Assembly: GCA_964634535.1 (NCBI GenBank)
Contig: CAZWMF010000001.1
Location: 1 to 39,681, forward strand
Direction of reading: 5' to 3'
From: an uncultured Opitutaceae bacterium
GTDB taxonomy: Bacteria > Verrucomicrobiota > Verrucomicrobiia > Opitutales > Opitutaceae
DNA: 39,681 nucleotides
In this document: positions 5,849-30,956 of the stretch, piece by piece
Layout: each line of letters opens with the position of its first letter
Position numbering within the stretch: position 1 is the stretch's first letter
Position numbers and translations under genes: made by a program
The notes under the pieces: model-generated
Told to the model about the DNA's origin: nothing
The model's input: only the letters and a program-made list of their open reading frames with translations
Databases searched by the model: none

Positions 5849-5913
5849 TTTCCACTCCCCACCCTCCCCAGTCGCCCCTAGGGGCGTCGCACTTACCCCC
5901 CTTGAGTAGGGTC

Positions 5914-6088
5914 CCGTCGCCGTGCGAATTAGTCTGGCCCTACCGGGGCGTTGCGTCGCTCATCAACCCTCTCCTGGCTGGACTGCGACACCAGCTCCAC
6001 TGCGCGGATCACTGCGGGCCGGTTTGAGGGTTGTCTGGGCCTTGCGACGCTTGCCCCGGTAGGGCCGGACTAATTCGCACGGCGACGG
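5914..6088 (+). repeat. 175-nt palindromic/structured intergenic element, copy A (candidate structured RNA)
   Basis: 5914-5949 pairs with 6053-6088 over 36 consecutive positions (35 Watson-Crick plus one G-U, t5935-g6067). Inner helices are 5953-5959/6044-6050, 5964-5971/6026-6033, 5973-5974/6021-6022 and 5976-5979/6017-6020. The paralogue lies at 15865-16039. Confidence 0.7.
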
Positions 6089-6144
6089 CGCCCGGCGTCA
6101 TCAGCTGGGTTGAAAACAACCAAACTTTGCGCCATCAGACCCCC

Positions 6145-8967
6145 GTGCCCACGTTCCGCCGCCTCTGCGCCCTCGCCCTGCTCAGTCTCGGTCTGCCGCA
6201 TCTGCGCGCGGCCCTGCCCTTTCCCCAGGACGGCAGCGACCTGCGGCCGGATCCGGCCGCCCACTTTGGCATTCTCCCCAATGGACTGCGCTATCTGATC
6301 TATCCCAACCACGAACCGCGCGACCGCGCCTCCCTGCGGCTGCTCGTCCTGAGCGGTTCCCTGGAGGAGCGCGACGACCAACGCGGCCTCGCGCACTTTC
6401 TCGAGCACATGGCGTTCAATGGCAGCGCCCACTACCCCCCCGGCACGCTGGTCGAATACTTCCAGCGCCTGGGCCTGAGTTTTGGCGGAGACACCAACGC
6501 CTACACCGACTTCGACCACACCGCCTACCAAATCGAATTGCCGCACACCAAACCCGACATGATCGCCGAAGGCCTGCGGGTCTTCGCCGACATGGCGGGC
6601 ACGCTCCTGCTCCGGCCGGACATGATCGCGAAGGAACGGCCGATCATCCTGGCCGAGAAGCGGGACCGCGATTCGATCGACTACCGCGAATTCGTGGCCT
6701 CGTTCGCGTTTGAATTGCCGGACGCACGCCTACCCCGGCGCCTGCCGATCGGCTCGGCGCCCGTGATCGAAGGGGCCACGCGTCCGCTCTTCACCGATCT
6801 CTATAATACGTGGTACCGACCCGAGCGCATGGTCGCGATCGTCGTGGGCGACATCGACCCGGCCGTCGTGCAGCCGCTGCTGGTCGCCGCGTTTGGCGGA
6901 CTGACCGACCGGGCTCCCGCCCGGCCCAATCCGGACCTGGGGACCGTGACCGTGGCGCTCGGCCTGCGCGCCGGCTACCATGCCGAGCCCGATGCGCCCT
7001 CGACCATCGTGAGCATCGACGTCATGACTCCGTATCGGCCGCCGGTGGACAGCGCCCGGGTGCGCCGGGCCCACCTGCACCGCGATCTGGCGGTGGCGAT
7101 GCTCAATCGGCGGCTAGAGATTCTCGCAAAAAAGGAGGGAGCGCCCTTCATCCGGGCCGAGGCCGCCGTCGACGAGAGTTATCGCTCGGTGCGCGACGCC
7201 GGCATCAATGTGACCTGCAAGGCCGAACTGTGGCGCGAAGCGCTGGCGGTCGGCGAACAGCAATTGCGCAGCGCCCTGCAGTACGGCTTCACCGAGGGAG
7301 AGCTGCGGATCGCCGCGGCCAACCTGCGCAACGATTTGGAGCAGGCGGCGGCCGCCGCGCCGACCCGGCGCTCGCCGGACCTGGCGGATGCGATGGTCCA
7401 CCAGTTCGTCGATGGCGTCGTCCTGACGAGTCCGGCCGACGACCTGGCCCTCCTGGGGCCCGCGCTCGACCAGGTTACGCCCAACGCGTGCGCCGACGCG
7501 CTGCGTCTGGCCTTCAGCGCGCCCGGTCGTTACCTCTATGTCACCGGCAATGTGCAGATTCCCGGGGACGCCGCGGCCGAAATCGAACGCGTCTACGCCG
7601 CCGCCCATGCCGTCGCCATCGCTCCCCCGGCGCCGGAGCGCCGCGAAGCGTTCGCCTACACCCAGTTCGGGCCGCCGGGCCGGGTGCTATCCGCGCGGCG
7701 GGTGGACGACCTCGACCTGACCGAACTCACCTTCGCCAATGGTGTTCGGGCCAATCTCAAACGCACCGCGTTCGAAGCCGATCGCATCCGGGTGCGCGTG
7801 CGGGTCGGCGGCGGCCTGCTGACCCTGCGCGCGGACCAACCGGCCCTGAGTCTCTTCACCGATGCCACATTCGCGGCCGGCGGTCTCGGCCGGCATAGCG
7901 CCGACGACCTGCAGCGACTCCTCGCGGGCCACACCGTCAGCCTCGACCAGATCTTCCAGGTGGGTAGCGATGCCTTTGAATTTGCCGGAGTCACCAATTC
8001 GGCCGACCTCCTCCTCCAACTCCAGGTGCTCGCAGCCTACCTGACCGACCCCGGATACCGGCCGGAGGCGATGCGCGTGGCCAGCAAGGAAATCGACGAG
8101 TATTACAAGCAGCTCGAGCACACCGTCGAAGGCCCGCTCGAAGCGACCGTTCCCGGGCAGCTGGCCGCCGGCGACCCGCGCTTCGGGCTGCCGGCGCTCG
8201 CCGTGGCCCATGCCCGCAACCTCGACGAAGAACGGGCCTGGCTGGCACCGCAGTGGGCCCGGGGACCGATCGAAATCGGCCTGGTCGGCGACCTCGACCC
8301 GGCCGTGGCGACGGACGCCCTGGCCCGAACTTTCGGAGCTTTGCCCGCCCGAGCGGCGAAGCCGACTTATGCCGCGGAACGGATCGTCCATTTTCCCAAG
8401 CCCTTTACCGAACACCTGACGGTGGTGACCGATATCCCCAAGACGGCGGTCGCCCTCTATTGGCCGACCACCGACGCCTTCGACGTCCATCGGGCGCGGC
8501 GGCTCATGCTGCTCAAGGAAATTCTCGAGGATCGCCTGCGGGTGAAGATCCGCGAACAGCTGGGCGGAGCCTACAGCCCCGAGGCGGAGAGCGAACCGAG
8601 CGACACCTTCACGGGCTACGGCTACCTGGTGGCCGAAGTCATCGTCGACCCGAAGCGCGCGGAGGAAATACGCCAGTCGGTGCTCGCGCTGGCCGCCGAT
8701 CTGGCCGCCCACGGCGCCACCCCCGACGAGCTCAAGCGGGCCAAGCAGCCCGTTCTAACCGCATTGCGGGAATCGGCCCGCACCAACCCCTACTGGTTGA
8801 CTGCCGTCCTCGGCAGCTGCCAGGAGTTTCCCCAACGGCTCGACTGGGCCCGAAGCCGCTACTCCGACGTCGAATCGGTGACCCCGGCCGACATCGCCGC
8901 CCTGGCCAGCCAGTACCTGGGTTCGGAACGCGCCTTTCAGGTCGTGGTGGCGCCGAGGGGGAAGTAG
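6145..8967 (+). CDS. M16 (pitrilysin/insulinase) family zinc peptidase, two-lobed, secreted
   Basis: The HFLEH zinc-binding motif (inverted HxxEH) lies in ...GLAHFLEHMAFNGS.... The length is consistent with two M16 units. A GTG at 6145 gives MPTFRRLCALALLSLGLPHLRAA, a plausible signal peptide. A TTG at 6127 is an alternative start. The 6031 start would lie inside repeat A. Confidence 0.85.
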   Translation: MPTFRRLCALALLSLGLPHLRAALPFPQDGSDLRPDPAAHFGILPNGLRYLIYPNHEPRDRASLRLLVLSGSLEERDDQRGLAHFLEHMAFNGSAHYPPGTLVEYFQRLGLSFGGDTNAYTDFDHTAYQIELPHTKPDMIAEGLRVFADMAGTLLLRPDMIAKERPIILAEKRDRDSIDYREFVASFAFELPDARLPRRLPIGSAPVIEGATRPLFTDLYNTWYRPERMVAIVVGDIDPAVVQPLLVAAFGGLTDRAPARPNPDLGTVTVALGLRAGYHAEPDAPSTIVSIDVMTPYRPPVDSARVRRAHLHRDLAVAMLNRRLEILAKKEGAPFIRAEAAVDESYRSVRDAGINVTCKAELWREALAVGEQQLRSALQYGFTEGELRIAAANLRNDLEQAAAAAPTRRSPDLADAMVHQFVDGVVLTSPADDLALLGPALDQVTPNACADALRLAFSAPGRYLYVTGNVQIPGDAAAEIERVYAAAHAVAIAPPAPERREAFAYTQFGPPGRVLSARRVDDLDLTELTFANGVRANLKRTAFEADRIRVRVRVGGGLLTLRADQPALSLFTDATFAAGGLGRHSADDLQRLLAGHTVSLDQIFQVGSDAFEFAGVTNSADLLLQLQVLAAYLTDPGYRPEAMRVASKEIDEYYKQLEHTVEGPLEATVPGQLAAGDPRFGLPALAVAHARNLDEERAWLAPQWARGPIEIGLVGDLDPAVATDALARTFGALPARAAKPTYAAERIVHFPKPFTEHLTVVTDIPKTAVALYWPTTDAFDVHRARRLMLLKEILEDRLRVKIREQLGGAYSPEAESEPSDTFTGYGYLVAEVIVDPKRAEEIRQSVLALAADLAAHGATPDELKRAKQPVLTALRESARTNPYWLTAVLGSCQEFPQRLDWARSRYSDVESVTPADIAALASQYLGSERAFQVVVAPRGK

Positions 8968-8980
8968 GTCCGCCTCCGCC

Positions 8981-9074
8981 TTCGCCTTCGGCTACGGCGG
9001 GACAAGGTTCGCCTTCGGCTACGGCGGGACAAGGTTCCGCCTCCTCCTTCGCCTTCGGCTACGGCGGGAGTAGG
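8981..9074. repeat. 27-bp tandem repeat (ttcgccttcggctacggcgggacaagg), with 2 identical adjacent copies, a 13-nt spacer, then a third copy with 2 mismatches
   Basis: 8981-9007 and 9008-9034 are identical. 9048-9074 differs at 2 positions. The 13-mers at 8968-8980 (gtccgcctccgcc) and 9035-9047 (ttccgcctcctcc) are also related. A degenerate fourth unit follows, to about 9098. Confidence 0.85.
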
Positions 9075-9105
9075 TTCGCTTTGGCGGCGCGACAAAGCCC
9101 GATTT

Positions 9106-11992: not shown

Positions 11993-14362
11993 ATGTCGGT
12001 CCGAAATCAATGGAAGCTGATCATGGGCGGATTGTCGGCGCGGCGCCAGGCGACGGCTCCGGTGGGGGCGGCCGCTCTGCGCGAATTCCTCGACGGCAAC
12101 CGCCTGGTGGCCGTGCTCATCTTCGTCGTGACCGTGGCGGCAATCGTGGCGATCAGCTCGCTGGGCATGACCACGTTCAACCTGCCGGTGCTGCCCAACC
12201 AAATCGCCACGATGCGGATCGCGGCCGGCCAATCCTTTACCTACGTCAGCGGCGAGAAGACCCGCCAGGCGCGCGAACAGATCGTCGCGCGCATTCCGCC
12301 GGTGTACCGGATCGATCTCGACGGCCTCCAACGTTTTGAAAGTGGAGTCCGCAATCTGCTGACGCGGTTGTCGGTCTACGAAGCGGGCCACCCGGGAGTC
12401 ACCGCCAGCCCGCTCGCCCTGGCCGACCTGGCCGACGATTACAATGCGGCCGAACCCTATCGGGTGAGCGCCGACGATCTGGCGGCGTTCCTTTCCGCCG
12501 GCGACGCCCCGACCCGGGCCGCGCTGTTCGAAAATGGCCTGGCCGCCATCCGGGAAATCTACGCCGAGGGCGTCCACGATTCGAGCCTGGCCGGCGAGAA
12601 CAACGACGAACTGGGCGTATTTCAAATCGAGCACGCCAATGGCGAGGTTGCGGCCCGGCCGGTCGAATCGATGGAGGATGCCCTGACTTTTCTGCGGGTT
12701 AGCCTGGCGAGCGGCGGCGTTTCCCGGCCGGTCGCGCAGGCGCTGTTCCGCTTCTTTCGGCGGGGGGTCAGCGCCAACCTGGTTTACGACAACGCGGCGA
12801 CGCAACGCCGCGTGAATGCCGCGCTCCAGACGGTCAAACCGGTGAGCGTCCACGTTCCCGGCGGGCAGGTCATCATCGATGCGGGCGAACGGGTCGGCCC
12901 CGAGCAATATGAAATGTTTCGCGCCTATCAGGCGTTCAGCCGCGAGCACGGCGATGCGGAATTCCTGGCTGGGCTCACCCTGTTCGAGCACGTCCTGCTC
13001 GTGCTCGCCATGGTGGTGGCCTCGATCCTCTATATCCGGCTGGAGGATCCGGAAACGATGCGCAGCAACGTCCGGCTCGGGCTGCTCGCCCTCGTGGTCA
13101 TCTTCAATCTGACGCTGGTGCGGTTGATTTACTCGCTGGGCGGCGCCGACTTCTTCCTCCGGGACGGTTCCTGGGCGGCCACCCTGCCCTATGTCGCCCC
13201 GACCGCCCTGGCGCCCCTGATCGTGGCCATTCTGATCGACGCCGGTTCGGGGATTTTCATGGCGCTGCTGATCTCGATCTTCACCGGCGTCATCTACGGC
13301 AACCGGGTCGACCTGCTCGTGCTGACCTTCCTGGCCTCGATGGTCGCGATTTTCTTCTGCCGCGACGCCCGGCAGCGCGGCAAGGTGGTGCGGGCGGCCG
13401 GCGCGGGCGGTTTGACCGTCGCCGCCTTCGCCGCGCTGATCGCCTTTGCCGAGCAGACCCCCCTGGACACGCTGGCGCGGGAAATGACCGCGGGCCTGCT
13501 GACCGGACTGTTCACCGGCGTCGTGGTGGTGGGTCTCCTGCCCGTCCTCGAATCCCTGTTCAAGCGCACAACCGACATCACCCTGCTCGAACTCACCGAC
13601 TACAATCATCCGCTTCTGCGCCGGATGCAGCTCGAGGCCCCCGGCACCTACCACCACTCGCTCGTCGTCGCCCAGCTGTCCGAAAATGCCTGCAATGCGA
13701 TCGGGGCCAATCCCCTGCTGGCCCGGGTGTGCGCGCTGTTTCACGATATCGGCAAGACGGTCAACTCGGGCTACTTCACCGAAAACATCCGCGAGCGGGC
13801 CAACCCGCACGATCGGCTCGATCCGCTGGTGTCGGCCCGGATCATCATCCGGCACGTGAGCGATGGCGTCGAACTTGCCCACAAGCATCGCCTGCCCAGT
13901 GCGATCGTCGCCGCCATCCGCGAGCACCACGGCACGACCCACGTGCGGTACTTCCACGAGAAGGCCTTGGCCGCCCGGGAGGAGGCGGGCGACACCGGGC
14001 CGTTCCTGGACGCGCCTTTCCGCTACCCCGGGCCAAAGCCGCAAACGCGCGAAAGCGCGGTGATTTCCATCGCCGATGCGGTGGAAGCGGCCTCGCGCAC
14101 GCTGCGCTCGGCCACCGCCGAACAGCTCGGCCAATTGATCGACGTAATCGTCGCCAATCGGATGACCCAGCACCAGCTGAACGAGACCCCCCTCACCCTG
14201 GAGGACCTCGCCAAGATCAAGAACAGTTTCACCTTCACCTTGCTGAACATGCTGCACTCGCGCGTGGCCTACGCGACCGAGGCCACCGGCCCGGAAGTCC
14301 GCGACGAGCCCTCGGGCGCCGCGCCGGCCGCGGCCCCCATCCGCGAGCAGCGCAAGGTGTAG
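11993..14362 (+). CDS. 7TM-receptor / HD-domain (HDIG) phosphohydrolase, PgpH/YqfF-like
   Basis: A large extracytoplasmic N-terminal region is followed by about 7 hydrophobic helices and an HD domain (HHSLVVAQL...LFHDIGK...REHHGTT). It sits in the classical phoH-yqfF-ybeY neighbourhood. Confidence 0.85.
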   Translation: MSVRNQWKLIMGGLSARRQATAPVGAAALREFLDGNRLVAVLIFVVTVAAIVAISSLGMTTFNLPVLPNQIATMRIAAGQSFTYVSGEKTRQAREQIVARIPPVYRIDLDGLQRFESGVRNLLTRLSVYEAGHPGVTASPLALADLADDYNAAEPYRVSADDLAAFLSAGDAPTRAALFENGLAAIREIYAEGVHDSSLAGENNDELGVFQIEHANGEVAARPVESMEDALTFLRVSLASGGVSRPVAQALFRFFRRGVSANLVYDNAATQRRVNAALQTVKPVSVHVPGGQVIIDAGERVGPEQYEMFRAYQAFSREHGDAEFLAGLTLFEHVLLVLAMVVASILYIRLEDPETMRSNVRLGLLALVVIFNLTLVRLIYSLGGADFFLRDGSWAATLPYVAPTALAPLIVAILIDAGSGIFMALLISIFTGVIYGNRVDLLVLTFLASMVAIFFCRDARQRGKVVRAAGAGGLTVAAFAALIAFAEQTPLDTLAREMTAGLLTGLFTGVVVVGLLPVLESLFKRTTDITLLELTDYNHPLLRRMQLEAPGTYHHSLVVAQLSENACNAIGANPLLARVCALFHDIGKTVNSGYFTENIRERANPHDRLDPLVSARIIIRHVSDGVELAHKHRLPSAIVAAIREHHGTTHVRYFHEKALAAREEAGDTGPFLDAPFRYPGPKPQTRESAVISIADAVEAASRTLRSATAEQLGQLIDVIVANRMTQHQLNETPLTLEDLAKIKNSFTFTLLNMLHSRVAYATEATGPEVRDEPSGAAPAAAPIREQRKV

Positions 14363-14534
14363 TCGGCCGACTCATCTCCACCTGAACCGGATCACCCGCC
14401 CGCGTCCAGCAAATCACTGGGCACCGGAGGCTCGCGACTACGGAGCGTTGCTTGCACCTGATGATCCGGGAGTTAAATGAGGCGCACCGGCGGCTCCATC
14501 CTCGCGAAAAAGCCGGTTACGAAGATGGCCGGAA

Positions 14535-14756
14535 ATGAACATCGTTACGGCGCTGACCAAGCTCGCGGAAATCCAGGAGGCGATCCAGCACCTGCCGCCC
14601 TATGAGCAGGAAGCATTGCGGCAGTGGTTCCTGGAGACCGAGGAAAGCCCTGAGCTTCTTGCCGCCATCGACGAAGCCGATCGATCTCTGGCCGAAGAAG
14701 GCGGCGTGCCCATCGAGGAGGTGCGCAAAGACCTGAGCCGATGGATTTCAAGGTAA
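14535..14756 (+). CDS. type II antitoxin-like small protein (addiction-module component type)
   Basis: This 73-aa helical acidic protein (…LPPYEQEALRQWFLETEESPELLAAIDEAD…) has a stop that overlaps the ATG of a ParE/RelE-like reading frame by 16 nt. That is the usual toxin-antitoxin operon layout. Confidence 0.6.
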   Translation: MNIVTALTKLAEIQEAIQHLPPYEQEALRQWFLETEESPELLAAIDEADRSLAEEGGVPIEEVRKDLSRWISR

Positions 14757-15040
14757 TCCTCGCCTAGAAAGCCTTACGCGACCTGGGAGAAATTGCCCGC
14801 TATATCGCACAGGACAACCCAACGGCGGCCGAATAAGTCGGCCTCGAATTGGTGGAACTGTCTGAATCTCTCAAAGTGCTGCCGCGGCGCGGCTCGACGG
14901 TCAAATTACGCCCCGGCGTGCATCGGTTGCTCAAAGACCCGTATTTGGTGCTCTATCGCGTAGACCAAGTCCGGCACGTCGTGAGCGTGCAGCGCTTCTG
15001 GCACGCCAAGCGCGATCCGAAGAGCCTGCGCCCGGAATGA
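14741..15040 (+). pseudogene. ParE/RelE-family toxin gene disrupted by two in-frame stop codons
   Basis: A single frame from the ATG at 14741 reads MDFKVILA-[TAG 14765]-KALRDLGEIARYIAQDNPTAAE-[TAA 14834]-VGLELVELSESLKVLPRRGSTVKLRPGVHRLLKDPYLVLYRVDQVRHVVSVQRFWHAKRDPKSLRPE. This follows the ParE_toxin consensus (A..DL.eI..YIa.dnP.aA ... P..G ... Y.i.Yrv ... v.i..v.h..rd). There is no frameshift, only two nonsense codons. Confidence 0.65.
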
Positions 15041-15300
15041 CCGGCACAGAGTCGGAAAACGCATTCATTCCGACCGCCTCCCGTTCGCTGGAAAAACGGC
15101 TGGAGAAAGGGAATCTGGCCGTCAGAATGTGTTCCCATCGTCGCCATTGTCAGCACCGACCCTTTCTCTTTCCAACCGTTCCGCCCGCCGCTGGCATGAG
15201 CGTTGGGGACGCCCCATGTGGAATAATCCTACCGCCGCTTGTTTTGGAACCATGATTATGTTGTCGTTCCATTTGCTGCGGCGATGCCGGGCTGCGAATC

Positions 15301-15837
15301 ATGCGGTCTAGCGCCGGTCGACCGATCGAGATAGGCTGCCGCCATCCGCGTCTGCGCCTGAAGCCCGCCGAGGTGGCCGCCGCTCTGCACCGCCTCGACG
15401 CGGAGCGCCATCGCTGGGAAACCGCCGCGTCCGTCCTGGGCCGGGCCGGCGGCCGCGAAACCTTGACGATCGCCTTCGTGACCGACGCCGAACTCGCGCG
15501 CCTGCACGCCCAGTTCCTGGACGATCCGACGCCGACCGACGTGATCACCTTCCCCGCGGAGCCCGGCTTCGGCGCCGCCGGCGAAATCTGCGTGTCGGCC
15601 GACGCCGCCGCCCGCCAGCCCGGCCGCGCCTTCTCCCTCGAACTCACCCTTTACGTCGTCCATGGCTGGCTCCACCTCGCCGGCCACGACGATCTGAATC
15701 CGGCCGCCAAACGCCGCATGCGCCGCGCCGAGCGCTCCGCCCTGGCCCACCTCCGCGCCGCCCGCGCCCTCCCGCACTTTTCCCTCGCGCCCGCCCAAAT
15801 CAAACGCCCGCACAAGAAGCGATCCCGACTGAACTGA
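15301..15837 (+). CDS. ybeY: rRNA maturation endoribonuclease YbeY
   Basis: The zinc motif is HGWLHLAGHDD (H-x3-H-x5-H). The preceding ITFPAEP...GEICVS segment is typical of YbeY. Confidence 0.85.
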   Translation: MRSSAGRPIEIGCRHPRLRLKPAEVAAALHRLDAERHRWETAASVLGRAGGRETLTIAFVTDAELARLHAQFLDDPTPTDVITFPAEPGFGAAGEICVSADAAARQPGRAFSLELTLYVVHGWLHLAGHDDLNPAAKRRMRRAERSALAHLRAARALPHFSLAPAQIKRPHKKRSRLN

Positions 15838-15864: not shown

Positions 15865-16039
15865 GTGCCAAGTTTTGAAATAAACCCACCCTCCCGGGGC
15901 GTTAGCGCAGCTCATCAACTCCCTCTGGGACCGTCTGCGTGGCACGCTCCACTGCGGTGATCACTCGGTCCGGTTCGGGGGTTGTCTGGGCCTGGCGAAG
16001 CGTGCCCCGGGAGGGTGGGATTATTTCAAAACTTGGCAC
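15865..16039 (+). repeat. 175-nt palindromic/structured intergenic element, copy B (candidate structured RNA)
   Basis: 15865-15900 pairs with 16004-16039 over 36 positions, with 35 Watson-Crick pairs and one A-A mismatch (15884/16020). Inner helices are 15916-15923/15977-15984 and 15928-15933/15966-15971. The core aligns with copy A and the total length is the same. Confidence 0.7.
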
Positions 16040-17452: not shown

Positions 17453-19981
17453 ATGCACATCGATCTCGAGGCCCGTCGCGCGCGCCTGAGCGTGGGCGAA
17501 TTCTCCGATTTTGCACTGGGCCCGCGCGACGCCGGCGAGGGTCCGGCCGGGATCTGGCGGGCCCAGCTCGGCACCCGGTGGCATCAGCAATTGCGGGCCC
17601 AAACCGCCGCCGAGCAGCCGAACGCCGGATTTGAAGTGGCGGTTGAGGGCGCCCTGGCGATCGCCGGGTGGACGATCGTGCTGAACGGACGCATCGACCA
17701 GTACCTGCGGGCGGGCCCGGCGATCCTCGTGCGCGAGATCAAGACCGTCACGCGCGCCCTGCCCGACGGCGAAAATCTCCTGCGGGCCGACTATCCGGGC
17801 TATTTTGTCCAGCTGGCCGCCTACGTCGCCCTGCTCAATCAATCGCCCCTCGAACCGGGCGGCCCGCCGCCCCGGCCGCCGGTGCGCGGAGAACTGATCT
17901 TTGTCGAGACCGCCACCGGCCTCAGCCAAGCCGTCTCCCTGGCGGAGGGCGACGCGCGGATGTTCGACGCGCAGATCGCGCGGGTCGCCGAGTTCCTCAA
18001 CCTGCGGCTCCGCGCCCGCGACCGCCAGCGCGGGCTGCAGTTCAGCCCGCCCTTCGCCGAGTTGCGCCCCGGCCAGGAAACCGTCGTGGCCGACCTGCAG
18101 ACCCAAGTGGACGCGGCCGCGCCCCCGGCCTCGGGCGGCCCCACCCCGCGGGTCGTGCTCCTCGAGGCCCCGCCCGGCTTCGGCAAGACTGGCGTCCTAT
18201 TGGAATTCGCGCTGGGCGCCCTGCGCGCCGGCCGCTTTGAGCGGGTGCTCTATCTGAGCGGAAAATCCTCCGGGCAACTGCAGGTCGGCCGCACCCTCGC
18301 GGCCATGGCCCCGCCGGCGGGAGCGGGCGGGCCGGCCGTTTGGACCGTCCGGCCCAAGTCCGAGCATTGCGTCAACCATGCCTTCCATTGCGTGCGCGAG
18401 GATTGCGGTTACCTGGACGGGGTCGAACGGCGCTGGACCGACAGCGGACTGGCGCGATTCTATTTGCTCGATAACCAGCCGCGCGACCTGCCGACCCTGC
18501 GCGCGGCCGGCCGGGAGGCCGGCGTGTGCCCCTACGAAATCACCCGGGCATCCCTGCCGTTCAACGATGTGTGGGTGGGCGATTACAATTACGTGTTTTC
18601 CCCGGGCAGCCGGGGCCTCTTCTTTCACCAACCCGGCTTCGAACCGGCAAGGACGCTTCTGATCATCGACGAGGCCCACAATCTGCCGGCCCGCGTCGCC
18701 GACGCCTACTCGCATGTCTTTTCCGCCGCCGCCGCCCGGGGGACGGCCGTCCTGCTCGACTCGATCAGTCCCGGCGCGCCCCTCACCCTGGCCTGGTCCC
18801 GCTGGACGGCGTTTCTGGACGGCCTGGCCCCCTGCGGCGCTCTGCGCGCCGGAGCGGAGGCCGACGCCCGGGACCTCATCCAGGAGCTGGCCGCATGCAT
18901 CCGCGAGCAGCCTGTCGACTACGCCGCCCTGAGCCCTGCCGCCACCGAGGCCATTTGGGAGATTCCCGGAATGGCCGACAATCTGGCCGAATCGGCCCTG
19001 ACCCTGCTGTGGTGGTGTCGGCAGCCCGGCAGCCTGTCGGTCACCTGCCTCGACGCGGCCCCGGCGATCGGCGCCGTCCTGGCCGCGTTCGGCGGCGTGG
19101 TCCTGGCGAGCGCCACACCGGGTCCGGCGGACGATTTGGCCGAAGCGCTCGGCCTGTCGGTCCCGCCCGAACCCGCACCGGCGCCCGCCGGCTGGAGCGA
19201 AACCGGGCGGCTGGGCAAGTTGACCAAACGCGAGACCAAGCGGCTGGCCGGCCAGGTGCTCACCGGCGCGGCCTTGCTCCGCCAGGCCGAGGGCGCCGGC
19301 GCCGCGCTCGCCGTCGTGCGGGCGCGCACCCCCTGGCGGGACGGGGCCTACGATGTGGCCTTCGACGTGCGCGTGGACACCACCTTTCAGCACCGCAGCC
19401 GGCACGCCACCACCACCGCCGCGACCGTCGCCGCCCTGTGCCGAGGCGACGCGGCCTGTGCGGCGATCTTCTTTTCGAGCTACGCCTACGCCGAGTTGAT
19501 CCGGGAGGAATTCCAGGCGAGCTATCCCCGGCTCCGCGCCAGCCTGCAGCCGCGGGCCCTGGAACTCGCCGCGCAGGCGCCGTGGGTGGAACGGGAATTG
19601 GCCGAGGCGGATGCGCTGTTCCTAATCCTGGGTTCGAGCTTTGCCGAAAGCGTCGACCTGCTCGGCGGACGCATCGGCTGCGGCATGGTGGTCGGACCGG
19701 CCCTGCCCGAGGTCAACCCGGTGCAGCACGCGCGACTGGCCGCGCTGGCCCCGCTCGGACGCGACGCCGCCTTCCGGCGCGTCTACCAGGTGCCGGGAAT
19801 GCAAAAGGTGAATCAAGCCCTGGGACGGCTGGTGCGCGCGCCGGGGCAGCGGGCGAAGATCCTGCTCCACTGCCGACGCTTCGCCGAACCGACCTACCGC
19901 AACCTGCTGGCCGCCGACTACCAGCAAGGCTGGCGAATCGAAGCCGACGAAGATCTCGAAACCTGGCTCGGACGCATTTAG
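17453..19981 (+). CDS. PD-(D/E)xK nuclease domain fused to an XPD/DinG-type (Rad3-family) Fe-S DNA helicase
   Basis: The N-terminal domain has GRIDQ...LVREIKT...YFVQLAAY, the D / E-x-K / Q-x3-Y motifs of RecB/Cas4-like nucleases. The helicase has Walker A EAPPGFGKTG, four Cys (EHCVNHAFHCVREDCGY...GVCPYE) in the position of the XPD 4Fe-4S insert, the DEAH box LIIDEAHNL, and a motif VI-like QALGRLVRAPG. The ATG at 17453 lies 5 nt after the upstream stop. Confidence 0.75.
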   Translation: MHIDLEARRARLSVGEFSDFALGPRDAGEGPAGIWRAQLGTRWHQQLRAQTAAEQPNAGFEVAVEGALAIAGWTIVLNGRIDQYLRAGPAILVREIKTVTRALPDGENLLRADYPGYFVQLAAYVALLNQSPLEPGGPPPRPPVRGELIFVETATGLSQAVSLAEGDARMFDAQIARVAEFLNLRLRARDRQRGLQFSPPFAELRPGQETVVADLQTQVDAAAPPASGGPTPRVVLLEAPPGFGKTGVLLEFALGALRAGRFERVLYLSGKSSGQLQVGRTLAAMAPPAGAGGPAVWTVRPKSEHCVNHAFHCVREDCGYLDGVERRWTDSGLARFYLLDNQPRDLPTLRAAGREAGVCPYEITRASLPFNDVWVGDYNYVFSPGSRGLFFHQPGFEPARTLLIIDEAHNLPARVADAYSHVFSAAAARGTAVLLDSISPGAPLTLAWSRWTAFLDGLAPCGALRAGAEADARDLIQELAACIREQPVDYAALSPAATEAIWEIPGMADNLAESALTLLWWCRQPGSLSVTCLDAAPAIGAVLAAFGGVVLASATPGPADDLAEALGLSVPPEPAPAPAGWSETGRLGKLTKRETKRLAGQVLTGAALLRQAEGAGAALAVVRARTPWRDGAYDVAFDVRVDTTFQHRSRHATTTAATVAALCRGDAACAAIFFSSYAYAELIREEFQASYPRLRASLQPRALELAAQAPWVERELAEADALFLILGSSFAESVDLLGGRIGCGMVVGPALPEVNPVQHARLAALAPLGRDAAFRRVYQVPGMQKVNQALGRLVRAPGQRAKILLHCRRFAEPTYRNLLAADYQQGWRIEADEDLETWLGRI

Positions 19982-20025
19982 GAAACAAACCGACCTCGGC
20001 GCCGTCTCATCCCTCTTACCTGGTT

Positions 20026-23000
20026 ATGTCTTTCTGGAACCCCCTCCGCTCCATCGTCTTTCTAATGCTTGCGATCGTGGCCATATCCGCGGCCATGCCC
20101 GTGCGGGCCGCCGTCGCAGCCGGCGCGGCGCCGGCCCGGCGCGAATTGACCCGTCAGGAACTGGCCCAGGGCTACCGCAACGGCGTCGTCCTGGCCAAGC
20201 CGCGGGCCGACCACCGGGCCAGCGTGGACGCCGACGAGGCGCGCGAGGGCACCGCCGCGATCCGCACCTTCCCGCGCATGGCCGACTTGCGCATCCTGCC
20301 CACGCAGTCCGGGGAAGACGCCCGCCATGCCGTGGCCCGGCTCAGCGCGACCGGACGCTACGAATTCGTCGAATTGGATCGGGTGATCCACAAGGACCAG
20401 ACGGTGACGCCGAACGACCCCGACTTCGGACAGCAATGGGGCCTCAACAACACCGGCGCCAACTCCCCGGACGGCAGTCCCGGAATCGCCGGAGCGGACA
20501 TCCACGCCCCGGCGGCCTGGGCGGTCTCGACCAACGCCGCGTCCGTAATCGTCGCCGAAATCGACACCGGCGTGCGGCTGACCCATGCCGACCTCGTCGC
20601 CAATCTGTGGATCAATCCGAGCGCCAACCGCGACGGCTACACCGGCGACGTCAACGGCATCGACGCTTCCGACCCGCAGGCGGTCACCGGCGACCCGTCC
20701 GACAGCGACGGCCACGGCACCCATGTCGCCGGCATCATTGGCGCGGTCGGCAACAACGGGCAGGACACTTCCGGCGTGTGCTGGACGGCCAAGATCATGG
20801 CCCTCAAATTCATCGGCTCGAGCGGCAGCGGCTCCACCTCGGGCGAAGTGATCTGCATCGATTTTGCGATCGCCCATGGCGCCAGTCTCATCAACGCGAG
20901 CTTCGGCTCGAGCCAGGCGAGCCAGTCGGAGGAAACGGCGATCCAGACGGCCGGCAATGCCGGCATCATCTTTGTGGCCGCCGCCGGCAACAATTCCGAG
21001 GACAACGGACTTACCACGAGCTACCCATGCAATTATCCCCTGGACAACATCGTGGCGGTGGCCGCTTCGGACAATCGGGACGATCTGGTCTACTTCTCCG
21101 ACTCGGGCTCGGGCAACGTCGAACTGGCGGCTCCGGGCAACGAGATTCTCTCGCTCTACAATACGAGCGACACGGCGACCGCCGTTCTCTCCGGAACGTC
21201 GATGGCCACGCCGATGGTCACCGGCTCGCTGGCCCTGCTCCGGGCCCAGTCGCCGAGCACCAGCTACCGCTACGTCATCAACCGGCTGCTGCGCCACGTC
21301 GATGCGCGCACCAATTTCCTCGGACGGGTGCAAACCGGCGGCCGACTTAATCTGGCGGCGGCCTTGACCTCGGCCCTCACCGACACGGCGCCGTTCAACG
21401 ACGATTTCGCCGCGCGGGGCCATCTGGCTGGGCCGACCGTCGCGGTGCGCTCGAACAACACCGGCGCCAGCCGCGAAGCGGGCGAACCCTTGATTGCGGG
21501 CAACGCCGGCGGGGCCTCGCTATGGTGGGATTGGACCGCGCCCTATACCGGGACCGTGACCCTGACGAGCGCGGGCTCGGCCTACGCCACCTTGCTGGGG
21601 GTCTACACCGGCACGGCGCTCGGCTCGCTGACGACCGTCCAAACCGCCACGTCCGGATCGCTGACCTTTTCCGCCCAGGCGGGGACAACCTACGCCATCG
21701 CCGTCGACGGACAGAATGGCGCCCATGGGCTAACCCTGCTGAATCTGAGTTTCGCCAACGACAACTTTAGCACGCCGATGACCTTGGCGGGGGTCAGCCC
21801 GCAAGTGACCGCAAGCACGGCCAATGCCACGCGGCAGGCGGGCGAACCGTTGATCGACGGCCTGGCCGGCGGCCATTCGGTCTGGTTCACCTGGACGGCG
21901 CCGCAGAGCGCGCAATACCAGGTCTCCGCGACCTCGCCAGACTTTGATCCGCTGGTCGCCGTCTACACGGGAAACAACCTGTCGGCGCTCAGCGCCCTCG
22001 CCAGCGGACATGGATCGGCCATCAACGCCAGCGCCTCCACCCCCGTGAGCATCGGGTCCGGAACGTTTGGCGCCGTGGCGGGCGTCACCTATCTGATCAC
22101 CGTGGACGGCACCACCGATGCGAGCACGCAATTGTCCGCCGGCCAGTTCACGTTATCCCTGGCCGATTCCCAGTGGCAGGGACTCACCACCGATTCGGTC
22201 ACCGGTTCGCCCGCCATCGGGGCCGACGGCACCGTCTACGCGGTCTCGACCGACGGCATTCTCTACGCCTTCACCGCTACCGGGGCGACCCGCTGGACGT
22301 ACAACGCGCAAAACGTCCTCGGCGGGACGGCCACCATCGACACGAGTTCGCCCGCTGTCGGAACCGACGGGACCCTCTACACGTCCGCCATCGGCTCGTC
22401 CAACGGTGCGGTTGTGGCCGTGACCGCCCAAGGCGCTCTCAAATGGAGTTACGCACCCCCGGCGGGGGACTACCCGACCTGCTCGCCGGCGTTGGCCTAC
22501 GATGGCACGGTGATCGTAAAGGACAGTAGCGGCCAACTCGACGCCCTCGACCCGGCGACGGGCACGCTCAAGTGGCAGAGCGCCGTCCCCGGATCCTCCT
22601 ACGCCGCGCCGTCGATCGGCCCCGACGGCACGATCTACATCGGCACCGACGACGGGGCCGGCGGCGGCCAGCTGTATGCCATCAGTTCCACCGGAACGCT
22701 GAAATGGACGGCGCCGGCGGACGGGCCGATCTATTCGACGGCGGCAATCGACGCCCGGGGCCACATTTATTTTGGAAGCCTCACCGGGACATTCTTCGCG
22801 GTCGATACGAGCGGCCATCGGCTCTGGTCCCAAACCGAAGGCAATAGCATCTCCTCCTCGCCGGCGATCGGTTCCGACGGCACGATCTATTTCGGGTGCT
22901 ACGACCACCAACTCTATGCGCTCGACCCGACCACCGGCGCGACGCGGTGGACCTACCGCCTGGCCGCCGAGGTTCGCGCCAGTTCGCCCGCCATCGCTGC

Positions 23001-24411
23001 GGGCGTCGCCGGCCTCGACGTCGTTTATATCGGCGACTACGACGGCAACCTCTATGCGGTCAATGCCGACGGCACGCTGAATCGCACGTTCGCCACGGGC
23101 ATGATCGTCCGCTCCTGTCCGGCGATCGCCAACAACACGCTCTATTTCGGGAGCGAGGACCACAAGGTGTACGCCTTTGCCCTCGGCACGCCCGCCGCGA
23201 GTTCAACCTGGCCGATGTATATGCAGAATCCGCAGCGCCGCGGCGCGGAGGCCGCCACCGCTCCGGCCATCACGATCCAGCCGCAGAGCCAAAGCGTCGC
23301 GGCGGGCAATACCGTCACATTGAGCGCGACGGCAACGGGCGGTGCCCTGACCTATCAATGGTTCTTCGCCGGAACGCCGATCGCCGGGGCGACCGGCTCC
23401 ACCCTGGTTCTGTCCCAGGTCGGCACCAGCCAGAGCTCGCTCTATGGCACTTACACCGTATCCGTCTCCAACATTCTGGGCACGGCCGTTTCGACGGCCG
23501 CCGCCCTGACCGTCCAGCCAAACGCCCACCTGATCAATCTGTCCTCGCGTTCCTACGTCGGCACCGGCGCCCAAGTGCTGGTGGCCGGATTCGTCGTCGC
23601 CGGCGCCGGCACGAAGCAGGTGCTGATTCGGGGCGATGGGCCGGCTCTCTCAACCTTCAATGTCGCCGGCGTCCTCGCGCAGCCGCTCCTGTCGCTCTTC
23701 GACAACACCTCCACGGTGATCGCGACCAATGCGGGCTGGAGCAACGCCGCGGTACTGGGCTCATCGAGCGTCGCCGCCACGATTGCGCCGGCCACGACCA
23801 ACGTGTTCAACCAGGTCTACGCGTTCACCCTGCCTACCGGCTCGGCCGACAGCGCGATGCTCGCAGGCCTGCCGCCGGCCGCCTACACCGCCGAAATCAG
23901 CGGAGTCGGCAATACGACCGGGGTCGCCCTGGCCGAACTCTACGACGCCGACAGCGGCACGCCCACCGCCCACCTCGTCAACCTTTCGGCCCGCGCCTTC
24001 GTCAACACCGGCTCGGGCGTCCTGGTCGCCGGCTTTGTCGTCAATGGCACCGGTTCGGAAACCGTGCTCATCCGCGGGATCGGCCCGGCTCTGGGGCTGG
24101 CGCCCTTCAACCTGCCGGGCGCCCTGGCCCTGCCGCAGCTCACGCTTTTCGACAGCACGGGAGCGGTCATCGCCACCAATGCCGGCTGGAGCACCGCGCC
24201 AGCGGGCGGAGCGTCTGCGGTCCCCGCCGGCATTCAGCCGGCCACGGCGCCACTCATGAGCGCCCTCTATGCCTTTTCCCTGCCGGCCAATTCCGCCGAC
24301 TGCGCGATGGTCATAACGCTGCCGGCCGGAGCCTACACCGCTCAGGTGAGCGGCGAGGGCGGCACGACCGGCGTAGGGTTGGTCGAGGTTTACGACGTTC
24401 CCGGCAATTGA
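20026..24411 (+). CDS. secreted multidomain S8 (subtilisin-family) serine peptidase, 1461 aa
   Basis: A signal/anchor sequence (MSFWNPLRSIVFLMLAIVAISAAMPVRAA) is followed by a propeptide-like region. The catalytic triad contexts are AEIDTGV (Asp), DGHGTHVAGI (His) and SGTSMATPMVTG (Ser). Two modules of about 110 aa follow (NDxF...GEP...VYTG...VDG). Next come PQQ/BamB-like beta-propeller repeats (DGT.Y... repeated many times) and an Ig-like domain (ITIQPQSQSVAAGNTVTLSATATG...YQWF). Two tandem 148-aa C-terminal modules complete the protein. Confidence 0.85.
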   Translation: MSFWNPLRSIVFLMLAIVAISAAMPVRAAVAAGAAPARRELTRQELAQGYRNGVVLAKPRADHRASVDADEAREGTAAIRTFPRMADLRILPTQSGEDARHAVARLSATGRYEFVELDRVIHKDQTVTPNDPDFGQQWGLNNTGANSPDGSPGIAGADIHAPAAWAVSTNAASVIVAEIDTGVRLTHADLVANLWINPSANRDGYTGDVNGIDASDPQAVTGDPSDSDGHGTHVAGIIGAVGNNGQDTSGVCWTAKIMALKFIGSSGSGSTSGEVICIDFAIAHGASLINASFGSSQASQSEETAIQTAGNAGIIFVAAAGNNSEDNGLTTSYPCNYPLDNIVAVAASDNRDDLVYFSDSGSGNVELAAPGNEILSLYNTSDTATAVLSGTSMATPMVTGSLALLRAQSPSTSYRYVINRLLRHVDARTNFLGRVQTGGRLNLAAALTSALTDTAPFNDDFAARGHLAGPTVAVRSNNTGASREAGEPLIAGNAGGASLWWDWTAPYTGTVTLTSAGSAYATLLGVYTGTALGSLTTVQTATSGSLTFSAQAGTTYAIAVDGQNGAHGLTLLNLSFANDNFSTPMTLAGVSPQVTASTANATRQAGEPLIDGLAGGHSVWFTWTAPQSAQYQVSATSPDFDPLVAVYTGNNLSALSALASGHGSAINASASTPVSIGSGTFGAVAGVTYLITVDGTTDASTQLSAGQFTLSLADSQWQGLTTDSVTGSPAIGADGTVYAVSTDGILYAFTATGATRWTYNAQNVLGGTATIDTSSPAVGTDGTLYTSAIGSSNGAVVAVTAQGALKWSYAPPAGDYPTCSPALAYDGTVIVKDSSGQLDALDPATGTLKWQSAVPGSSYAAPSIGPDGTIYIGTDDGAGGGQLYAISSTGTLKWTAPADGPIYSTAAIDARGHIYFGSLTGTFFAVDTSGHRLWSQTEGNSISSSPAIGSDGTIYFGCYDHQLYALDPTTGATRWTYRLAAEVRASSPAIAAGVAGLDVVYIGDYDGNLYAVNADGTLNRTFATGMIVRSCPAIANNTLYFGSEDHKVYAFALGTPAASSTWPMYMQNPQRRGAEAATAPAITIQPQSQSVAAGNTVTLSATATGGALTYQWFFAGTPIAGATGSTLVLSQVGTSQSSLYGTYTVSVSNILGTAVSTAAALTVQPNAHLINLSSRSYVGTGAQVLVAGFVVAGAGTKQVLIRGDGPALSTFNVAGVLAQPLLSLFDNTSTVIATNAGWSNAAVLGSSSVAATIAPATTNVFNQVYAFTLPTGSADSAMLAGLPPAAYTAEISGVGNTTGVALAELYDADSGTPTAHLVNLSARAFVNTGSGVLVAGFVVNGTGSETVLIRGIGPALGLAPFNLPGALALPQLTLFDSTGAVIATNAGWSTAPAGGASAVPAGIQPATAPLMSALYAFSLPANSADCAMVITLPAGAYTAQVSGEGGTTGVGLVEVYDVPGN

Positions 24412-24660
24412 CCCGGGCAAATCTGGCGCAATCTTCGCTCCTGGGTCAGGTGCTCTCAGCGGAACCCTCCGGGGCGGCGCTTCGCCAGGACCCAAAAAGC
24501 CGACACGCCGCGCCTCATCGAGCGGGGCGCCCGAGTCGGTTTGGGAGGCTCCGCTAGGCTTAGGGCAAGCTGACCCACGACCCCATCTTCGCCGGTTTTG
24601 CGCGGGACGCGGAAACCGCGCTTTACTCCCTCAAGGAAGGACCTGAAAGTAACCAAACTG

Positions 24661-27513: not shown

Positions 27514-28619
27514 CTTGGCGCGATTCGCGTCTGCGCCGGCGGCGGGCCCACCGAGGCGCGAATGACCAAATCGACTGCAAATACCGTCGGCCGCGCGGGC
27601 GCCGGCCGCGCGTCGGCCGAATCGCCCATGCGGTCCAAGAGGAGTTCGACCGCCCGAGATCCCATGGCGCGCAATGGTTGGCGCACCGCGGCCAATTGCG
27701 GCACCGTCGTGCGAGCGGCTACCGTGTCGTCGAACCCCGCCACGGACATATCCTCGGGCGCCTTTAGCCCGACTTCGGCCATGGCTTCCAGGCAGCCCAT
27801 GGCGATGGCGTCGTTGGCGCAGAACACCGCCTGCGGCAAGGGCTGACCGACATGCTCCCGCAGCCAGCGGCGAAAGGCGCCGTATCCGCCCGGGGCGCTG
27901 AAGGCGGACTCGCACACGAGGTCGGGGTCGAAACGGATCCGGCCGGCCGTCAATGCCCGACGGTAACCGCGCAGGCGCCGCAGCGCACCCAGGGCGCCCC
28001 GCTCGCCCCCCAGATGCAGAATCCGCCGGTGGCCGAGCTCGATCAAATGGCGCACCATCTGGCAGGCGCCCGATTCCTCGTCGCTCTCCAAGTTGATGAC
28101 GCCGGGCAGAGGGTGATTGGCGTGGAGCGCCACAAAGGGCGTGTGCGGCGGCAGGGCCCGGCCGGCGGCCGTGGGCATCCGGGGACCGACCAGGATCATC
28201 CCGTCGATGCGGCCGTCGCAAAAACCGCCGAGGCGCGCCGCATCCTCCGCCCAGTTAGCCAGAGAGAACACCGTGGTGTTCTGCCCGTGGGCCGTCGCCG
28301 CCGCGACCACCCCGGCGAACACCTCCAGAAAGTAGGCGTCGATCTCGCCGTCGCCGAAGACCGCGGCGACCCCGATCGTGTTCATCCGCCGATTGGCCAA
28401 CGCGCGGGCGGCGGCGTTGGGCCGATAGCGCAGCCGAGCGGCCGCGGCGAAGATCCGCTCCCGCGTGCCCGCGGAAATGCGCGAGGAGGTGCGGGCCGCG
28501 TTGAGCACCGCCGAAACCGCCATCGCCGAAACGCCGGCGGCCCGGCCGACATCGGCCAGGGTGGCCGCCCGCTTCGAAGAATGCTGCCGAATATGGACCA
28601 TCGACCGGCCTACTCTCAC
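27510..28619 (-). CDS. LacI-family transcriptional regulator
   Basis: The N-terminal HTH is ATLADVGRAAGVSAMAVSAVLN...SAGTRERIFAAAARLRYRPNAAARAL. A periplasmic-binding-protein-like sugar-binding core follows. An alternative start (MVHIRQ) lies at 28601. Confidence 0.9.
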   Translation of the reverse strand: MRVGRSMVHIRQHSSKRAATLADVGRAAGVSAMAVSAVLNAARTSSRISAGTRERIFAAAARLRYRPNAAARALANRRMNTIGVAAVFGDGEIDAYFLEVFAGVVAAATAHGQNTTVFSLANWAEDAARLGGFCDGRIDGMILVGPRMPTAAGRALPPHTPFVALHANHPLPGVINLESDEESGACQMVRHLIELGHRRILHLGGERGALGALRRLRGYRRALTAGRIRFDPDLVCESAFSAPGGYGAFRRWLREHVGQPLPQAVFCANDAIAMGCLEAMAEVGLKAPEDMSVAGFDDTVAARTTVPQLAAVRQPLRAMGSRAVELLLDRMGDSADARPAPARPTVFAVDLVIRASVGPPPAQTRIAPS

Positions 28620-28700
28620 GAAATTGCCCGGCCTTGTCCCGGCTTTTTTGGTCGATTTATCCTCTGGATGGGCGTTTTCTGAGCGTTCTACCCCACCCCT

Positions 28701-30947: not shown

Positions 30948-30956
30948 ATTTTTACC

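Follow-up and report, generated by a model that had tools for sequence, protein, structure and literature searches.

A long palindromic hairpin defined by its shape and dispersed in intergenic spacers of an uncultured Opitutaceae lineage

Introduction

Between two divergent gene starts of an uncultured Opitutaceae bacterium lies a nearly perfect hairpin of 175 nt, and its position raises the question whether it is a structured RNA that serves the gene downstream, or a repeat unit that came to rest there. The hairpin was noticed in a 39.7-kb stretch of DNA (the window, i.e. the whole stretch that was analysed), where the original prediction described it as a candidate new structured RNA in the leader or promoter region of an M16 peptidase gene and recognised a second copy with the same architecture. 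To our knowledge, small palindromic repeats are the least understood of the bacterial mobile or regulatory sequences, and in Verrucomicrobiota next to nothing is known of them.

Results

Architecture of the hairpin

All structural claims made for the hairpin at 5914-6088, hereafter copy A, proved correct. Its arms (5914-5949 and 6053-6088) pair over 36 nt, the only departure from perfect complementarity being a T/C difference that yields the G-U pair t5935-g6067, and with mismatches allowed the inverted repeat extends over 5909-6093 (41 nt, 93 %). The inner helices at 5953-5959/6044-6050 and 5964-5971/6026-6033 are present in the sequence, and the minimum free energy fold contains them with small register shifts. 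Folded as RNA, copy A reaches -130.4 kcal/mol, compared with -71.8 +/- 4.3 kcal/mol in 200 dinucleotide shuffles (z = -13.7), none of which (0/200) folded as well. The hexamer ACTGCG does occur three times in the apex of copy A, as had been described, but only the middle occurrence is invariant across the three copies presented below (A, B and C); in their alignment CTGCG is what is kept of the first, and the third reads ACT-CGG in copies B and C. The conserved loop sequence TCTGGGCCT appears in copy C as the variant TCTGGGCAT. The parts of copy A and its neighbours are as follows.

5914..6088, + strand: copy A, whole element, 175 nt, between waaA and the M16 peptidase gene
5848, - strand: start of waaA, neighbour of copy A
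6145, + strand: start of the M16 peptidase gene, neighbour of copy A
5914..5949, + strand: left arm, 36 nt, of which the outer 24 nt (5914-5937) are variable
5938-5949, + strand: inner 12 nt of the left arm, CCCTACCGGGGC, conserved
6053..6088, + strand: right arm, 36 nt, of which the outer 24 nt (6065-6088) are variable and still complementary to the left arm
6053-6064, + strand: inner 12 nt of the right arm, GCCCCGGTAGGG, conserved
5950..6052, + strand: core, 103 nt, with nested helices and conserved loops, 74-76 % identical to the cores of copies B and C
Conserved loops within this core: GCTCATCAAC, CTGCG, ACTGCG and GGGTTGTCTGGGCCT (6028-6042)
5926..5931, + strand: GAATTA (GAAWTW motif) in the left arm, with its partner TAATTC at 6071-6076
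5979..5980, + strand: polymorphic dinucleotide TG, replaced by CC in the same-population contig L071

Two further copies

The second copy (B) shares this architecture exactly, as anticipated, with arms of 36 nt and 103 nt between them.

15865..16039, + strand: copy B, whole element, 175 nt, between ybeY (ends 15837) and the DUF502 gene (starts 16114)
15865..15900, + strand: left arm, 36 nt, with GAAATA at 15877-15882
16004..16039, + strand: right arm, 36 nt, with TATTTC at 16022-16027 and a single A-A mismatch against the left arm
15901..16003, + strand: core, 103 nt, 83 % identical to the core of copy C

Copy B folds as RNA at -115.2 kcal/mol (z = -11.5), and its sequence is identical on four independent metagenome contigs. 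Covariance model R1 scores copy B at 197.7 bits, and copy A at 200.8 bits on the + strand versus 71.9 bits on the - strand. Scoring every position of the 39.7-kb window with a covariance model built from A and B revealed no further copies there.

The third copy was reached through proteins. The peptide of the one open frame of copy B was searched with HMMER in 1.84 billion representative proteins and found a spurious ORF of 121 aa (P0242), whose C-terminus reads through another copy of the element; P0245 represents the same locus. This copy C lies at 1369-1542 of contig L179, between a DUF4199 gene and a convergent gene, scores 147.6 bits and has arms of 42 nt that are 95 % complementary, with 102 nt between them. 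The contigs that carry it (L179-L182) stem from two of the sequencing runs of the window sequence itself, an ENA assembly and another JGI metagenome. Very probably copy C belongs to the same organism as the window, since it is flanked by a REP-like unit that also occurs at window positions 8967-9080 and in no relative. The family is hence sampled here by three copies.

Short metagenome contigs, derived from few metagenomes, match the window exactly save for the two-base variant in L071. This change of TG to CC at 5979-5980 converts a G-U pair and a G-G mismatch into two Watson-Crick pairs and lowers the fold energy of copy A from -130.4 to -133.6 kcal/mol; such a double change fits the pattern of template switching in a quasi-palindrome, and selection might favour it as well. 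The short population contigs have ten ends, three of which (of L028, L029 and L071) lie inside element cores (15944 and 15992 in copy B, 6028 in copy A), and the elements make up <1 % of the window sequence. This suggests assembly breaks that are either repeat-induced, by more similar copies elsewhere, or hairpin-induced, by poor sequencing.

Conservation and covariation

Pairwise identity among the three copies amounts to 20-40 % in the flanks, 42-56 % in the outer 24 nt of each arm, 92 % in the inner 12 bp (CCCTNCCGGGGC / GCCCCGGNAGGG) and 74-83 % in the 103-nt core, where the blocks GGGTTGTCTGGGC, ATCAAC and ACTGCG stand out in the alignment. The terminal bases differ from copy to copy (CCGTC, GTGCC and GCGGC). 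The outer arms are homologous nevertheless, agreeing at 13/24 positions between A and C (P = 0.004) and at 12/24 between B and C (P = 0.014), and in the arms copy C is 50-54 % identical to copies A and B. Furthermore, the GAAWTW motif has a fixed place in the left arm of each copy, so that alignment columns 23-28 and 169-174 are largely invariant amid variable arms. This homology and the common motif at a fixed place rule out that the arms were copied from each target or represent pre-existing palindromes.

Pairing is far better preserved than sequence in the arms. In the closing stem 97.6 % of positions are paired across copies, and over all pairs the proportion of paired cells is 95.9 %, versus 84.1 % in column shuffles and 35-45 % with slid partners. 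Both sides have changed in 23 of the 73 pairs versus 8.8 expected, a number that none of 500 shuffles reached, and these compensatory changes are found in the inner helices as well as in the closing stem; the N position of the inner stem, for instance, is A-U, C-G and U-A in the three copies. The claim of a structured fold is borne out by these compensatory changes, by a strand asymmetry of the kind expected of a + strand fold and by z-scores far beyond chance. The unit is defined by its shape rather than by its ends: a conserved centre of ~127 nt (core plus 12 bp of stem) is continued by a further 24-30 bp of stem, whose sequence drifts freely with its pairing kept. A coding role was ruled out by 1-nt indels, differing stops and substitutions spread evenly over codon positions; no ORF is conserved among the three copies, and their G+C content is 61-67 %.

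Strand asymmetry

Among non-Watson-Crick oppositions read on the + strand, G-U occurs in nine columns and A-C in one (binomial P = 0.02), a count that is partly biased as the structure had been predicted on the + strand. Folding each strand on its own avoids this bias and pointed the same way: with RNA parameters the + strand exceeded the - strand in stability by 7.8, 11.9 and 15.4 kcal/mol in the three copies, and with DNA parameters the margin was 4-7 kcal/mol. The fold therefore appears to matter in a single-stranded + strand form, be it RNA or DNA. The GC skew of the + strand is uniformly negative (-0.07), from which the direction of replication cannot be fixed on one 40-kb contig.

Insertion into conserved spacers

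The closest relatives are distant. The best named relatives of the YbeY and M16 proteins are Opitutaceae metagenome-assembled genomes, and the closest identities are only 71 % and 68 %, respectively, which marks the lineage as poorly sampled. Gene order in the relatives is nevertheless that of the window (waaA, M16, fabF, HIT, 7TM-HD, ybeY, DUF502, helicase), and the two spacers in question compare as follows.

ybeY-DUF502 spacer: 14 nt (three contigs), 54 nt and 110 nt in relatives, 277 nt in the window
waaA-M16 spacer: 122-151 nt in relatives, 296 nt in the window

Over 67 kb searched with the covariance model, the element is absent from the orthologous syntenic loci of every relative examined (64-71 % protein identity). 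A weak match in the relative L032 was rejected as a plain GC-rich hairpin inside a gene. Conserved synteny without the element identifies both window copies as lineage-specific insertions into conserved spacers. No empty site was found within the species, so the comparison rests on relatives 64-71 % identical in protein; absence in relatives that have diverged by 30-35 % in protein suggests that the element has moved.

The three settings also differ from each other: copy A lies between divergent genes, copy B inside the ybeY-DUF502 operon and copy C between convergent genes, a distribution that speaks for an interspersed repeat and not for a regulatory leader. Copy B is very likely transcribed, as its spacer belongs to an operon that is tightly packed in relatives. 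All three copies share the direction of an adjacent gene and could be carried on its transcript; this co-orientation is informative for copy B only. Neither the arms of copy A nor those of copy B have a match elsewhere in the window, so that nothing points to their acting as guides or targets.

Relation to the M16 gene

From the end of copy A it is 39 nt to TTG 6127 and 57 nt to GTG 6145, the distances originally given to the two possible M16 starts, and the 940-aa M16 protein of the public annotation matches the GTG 6145 start. The link to an M16 leader or promoter, in contrast, did not hold, as the element is also found within an operon (B) and between convergent genes (C) and is missing from the M16 spacers of relatives. 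A candidate promoter lies further downstream.

6111..6116, + strand: TTGAAA, putative M16 -35 box, 23 nt past the end of copy A

The same hexamer is located 34-42 nt before the M16 start in three lineages, namely the window and the relatives L176 (9960-9965) and L178 (1181-1186), and in both relatives it is followed after 16 nt by the hexamer TACACT or TACAAC. TTGAAA and the following hexamer are likely a promoter with a very short M16 leader. As copy A ends ~23 nt upstream of the putative -35 box, it may be outside the M16 transcript altogether. A short GC-rich hairpin was observed in L176 and L178 just upstream of TTGAAA, where the window has copy A. For annotation, the hairpin of copy A should not be labelled as a regulatory leader of the M16 peptidase.

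Searches for known families

In agreement with the failure to assign the element to any known RNA, an Rfam 15 scan of the whole window gave no match at gathering score. Near copy A the best hit at E<=10 was CRISPR-DR12 (16 bits against a threshold of 37, E = 1.5), and on L179 nothing was found at E<=1. A HMMER match, P0243, is a 501-aa 'protein' that represents a translated CRISPR array with the repeat in all three frames, and shares ~12 nt (GCTCCAYTGCGG) with the element apex. Both CRISPR-repeat likenesses were judged to be due to chance, as they amount to ~12 nt and summed repeated stretches. BLAST of copy A against plasmid and phage collections returned no similar DNA, and a six-frame pseudo-protein of copies A and B found nothing in a set of 5.8 billion proteins. 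Pattern scans of GTDB genomes and JGI metagenomes gave only chance matches without the other conserved blocks, and two viral pattern scans gave chance matches or nothing; the GTDB and JGI patterns were strict enough that copy C would fail both, and these collections lack the source contigs, so the two scans say little about the distribution of the element.

The genes nearby offer no mobilising function. As first noted, there is no transposase or reverse transcriptase, and there is likewise no integrase or recombinase domain, among the ORFs scanned in the 39.7-kb window, which are housekeeping and glycoside-hydrolase genes. The lack of a target-site duplication was confirmed by sequence at copy A and extends to B and C, the junctions being GGGTC|...|CGCCC for A, CGGGA|...|GGCTG for B and CCGTT|...|ACCCT for C, and TA ends are lacking as well.

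In size and dispersal the element resembles a miniature inverted-repeat transposable element (MITE; <~300 bp, non-coding, dispersed), with 174-175 nt at three unrelated loci. Its copies, on the other hand, are not near-identical, lack duplications and share no termini, so that the ordinary MITE considered at the outset as the refuting case does not apply; the termini are variable (42-56 %), and the window contains no insertion sequence (IS) or transposase. Conservation is central and not terminal, as opposed to REPs and REPINs, and the tetranucleotide GTAG/CTAC occurs in copy A only, at the covarying position of the inner stem. All contigs crossing a copy show one orientation, and with no recombinase domain in the window an inverton is not indicated. 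Nothing resembling an intrinsic terminator is found at copy A, which lies between two gene starts, and the arms of copy B give only weak internal matches; promoter and terminator scans carried little information and predicted neither signal as belonging to the element. Finally, integron attC sites, which have RYYYAAC ... GTTRRRY core sites at their ends, a variable centre and gene cassettes around them, do not match: the ends differ, it is the centre that is conserved here, and the copies adjoin housekeeping genes whose synteny is conserved.

Other features of the region

The window contains further sequence that relatives lack. At 8967-9080, the convergent spacer between M16 and fabF, which measures 166 nt versus 30 nt in the relative L176, holds three copies of the REP-like unit CGCCTTCGGCTACGGCGGG with GTAG/CTAC tags, the first two forming a 27-nt tandem repeat. 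In L179, copy C is flanked by this unit as well (~1226-1265 and ~1565-1600), whereas the loci of relatives lack it; the unit looks like the GTAG-type REP family reported for Opitutus terrae (PMC3733652). The intergenic stretch that precedes copy C in L179 is long (~890 nt from gene to gene) and AT-richer; further small hairpins occur in it (1138-1200), e.g. AATCAGTT/AACTGATT and CATCGA/TCGATG, which makes it a repeat-rich region.

An insert of 939 nt at 14362-15301 separates the 7TM-HD gene from ybeY, two genes that overlap in relatives. It carries a 73-aa ORF (14535-14756) and a broken ParE toxin, of which a remnant at 14849-15040 matches positions 37-89 only of PF05016, the upstream part being broken by stops, and it is a decayed toxin-antitoxin module inserted in the operon. 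Another block (18526-33827) comprises genes for an S8 peptidase/beta-propeller, GH31, LacI, BNR and GH2 proteins between a DinG-like helicase and pyrB. In L176 the DinG-like helicase is followed by a phosphoribosyltransferase gene and pyrB without this block, which is a lineage-specific insertion for carbohydrate use.

Discussion

The unit described here measures 174-184 nt, is GC-rich and non-coding, and lies in unrelated intergenic spacers of one uncultured Opitutaceae lineage. With a probability of about 0.5, we regard it as a previously undescribed family of structure-defined palindromic repeats, similar in kind to ERIC, Correia and YPAL, which forms a long double-stranded RNA stem when co-transcribed. 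Since REP-type repeats are present in the genome, other small interspersed palindromic repeats are harboured as well.

Bacterial MITE-like elements of <200 bp, whose 5' and 3' ends pair, are co-transcribed with genes and act on the mRNA via RNase III or RNase E; thus, co-transcribed Correia copies are processed by RNase III, and ERIC alters mRNA stability depending on its orientation (PMC2229807, PMC10969869, PMC2649163). Like our element, ERIC/IRU and Correia (CREE/NEMIS) are shorter than 200 bp, non-coding, intergenic (including inside operons) and folded into one long stem-loop, and ERIC and CREE also possess a conserved central part (PMC2229807, PMC10969869, PMC2649163). However, theirs are A+T-rich sequences with conserved terminal inverted repeats (TIRs), TA ends and target-site duplications, whereas here the ends are the least conserved part, TA and duplications are lacking, G+C amounts to 61-67 % and the stem is much longer and nearly perfect (36-42 bp). 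Closer in some respects is the 168-bp YPAL/RU-2 of Yersinia, which is not A+T-rich, has no TA ends, carries inverted repeats that are not classical TIRs, and targets sites at or near dyad symmetries (PMC2229807), but it generates duplications of 3-26 bp and contains internal inverted repeats. CIR of Caulobacter and Brucella has no TIRs either (PMC2229807), but folds into two arms; both families are likened to our element by their described features and not by sequence.

REPs and REPINs with their RAYT transposases resemble the element in being hairpin-forming and strand-specific, in being recognised as single-stranded DNA structures and in inserting without duplication. Opitutus terrae is reported to have many GTAG-type REPs (PMC3733652). 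In contrast to our element, with GTAG in copy A only, at a variable position, and with central conservation, REPs have 20-40 nt with a conserved GTAG or CGTC tag, and REPINs have conserved REP ends around a variable spacer. Lacking conserved termini and duplications and showing the reverse pattern of conservation, the element falls outside the MITE class as defined, and it is not a REP or REPIN. A different parallel is offered by rRNA-precursor stalks and small RNAs released by RNase III, where a long duplex of unconstrained sequence likewise closes a conserved RNA, but the present element is dispersed and lineage-specific, and its transcription and cleavage are predicted.

How might such a unit spread? 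The paired shape of the ends, the conserved centre and the better fold on one strand, an unusual combination for a repeat family, point to a single-stranded hairpin, be it DNA or RNA, as what is recognised, and not to terminal sequences. We hypothesise that the element is propagated or maintained as a single-stranded + strand (ssDNA or RNA), that its rod-like hairpin would be recognised by a factor encoded elsewhere, and that it would insert without target duplication. At transcribed sites, very likely including copy B, a double-stranded RNA stem of 36-42 bp would form, and copy B would offer RNase III a 36-bp duplex. The stem would be expected to undergo RNase III cleavage or to serve as a barrier or stabiliser, so that flanking cistrons would become uncoupled, as with ERIC and Correia. 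Such an RNA-level effect does not hold for every copy, as A probably lies before the M16 promoter and no + strand gene precedes it. Against the repeat-family reading stand the lack of duplications, of conserved termini and, within the 39.7-kb window, of a candidate mobilising gene; in addition, loops and core more conserved than the stem and a G-U bias are also expected of a functional RNA. The negative GC skew of the + strand is a weak misfit with the simplest expectation for mobilisation from a lagging-strand template.

The main rival, which seems possible to us though doubtful, is a functional structured RNA family, in which the ~130-nt centre would be active, e.g. as a protein-binding or sponge RNA with its repeated CUGCG/ACUGCG loops, and the sequence-free stem would be an RNase III processing stalk that frees this centre from host transcripts, like rRNA-flanking stems. 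It accounts equally well for the covariation and the strand bias, that is, for compensatory changes in inner helices and closing stem, for G-U in nine columns against A-C in one, for a + strand fold better by 8-15 kcal/mol in 3/3 copies and for the conserved loop blocks (GGGTTGTCTGGGC, ATCAAC, ACTGCG), and the co-orientation with potential carrier transcripts together with the lack of predicted promoters or terminators of its own fits hitch-hiking in host transcripts. Yet orientation tells for copy B only, the G-U count carries its + strand prediction bias, and quasi-palindromes can retain paired arms through template-switch correction, with no need for selection on RNA. What weakens this reading further is that the element is missing from all relatives at conserved loci, and hence is not an old conserved RNA gene, and that copy A, apparently upstream of the M16 -35 box and with divergent waaA opposite, has no obvious + strand transcription. 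A variant that we find rather improbable combines both readings in a new class of bacterial hairpin RNA module that spreads in the genome and relies on host read-through, with the sequence-free 36-42 bp stem as built-in RNase III stalk. If so, cleavage would free a conserved ~130-nt RNA or, from the variable arms, small duplex RNAs, which would have their own function, and the element would amount to a self-contained, mobile 'pre-RNA' cassette delimited by structure only.

Two explanations at the level of DNA have less in their favour. That the element is a decayed, IS-derived MITE, with arms that once were transposase-bound TIRs and stay paired only through replication template-switching, is unlikely: the size, the intergenic site and the long terminal inverted repeat do fit this class, the TG-to-CC double substitution perfects the palindrome as a template switch would, and contigs break within elements, but termini as the least conserved part (42-56 %) around an interior of 74-92 % are the reverse of what MITEs show, there are neither TA ends nor duplications, the 39.7 kb contain no IS, and uniform decay would neither spare the core nor yield the asymmetry of G-U over A-C. 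A DNA-level site, such as an inverton, a recombination site or a cruciform bound by protein, would draw on the inner 12-bp repeats (CCCTNCCGGGGC) that flank the 103-bp segment and are 92 % conserved, on the inverted arrangement around a short segment near gene starts (A and B) and on the symmetry of GAAWTW in both arms. We consider it highly unlikely, given that every contig crossing a copy has the same orientation, that the segment between the repeats is self-complementary and its inversion would change little, that a strand asymmetry of folding is unexpected for a duplex site, that no recombinase gene exists in the window, and that copy C has the 3' end of a gene on either side.

Returning to the family of structure-defined repeats, its members are unusual in that their ends are conserved only as a paired shape, their centre is conserved in sequence, and they fold better on one strand. 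If confirmed on a full genome, the family would provide a natural case for studying how long perfect stems are kept up, by selection or by template-switch correction, and would show how insertions split operons such as ybeY-DUF502.
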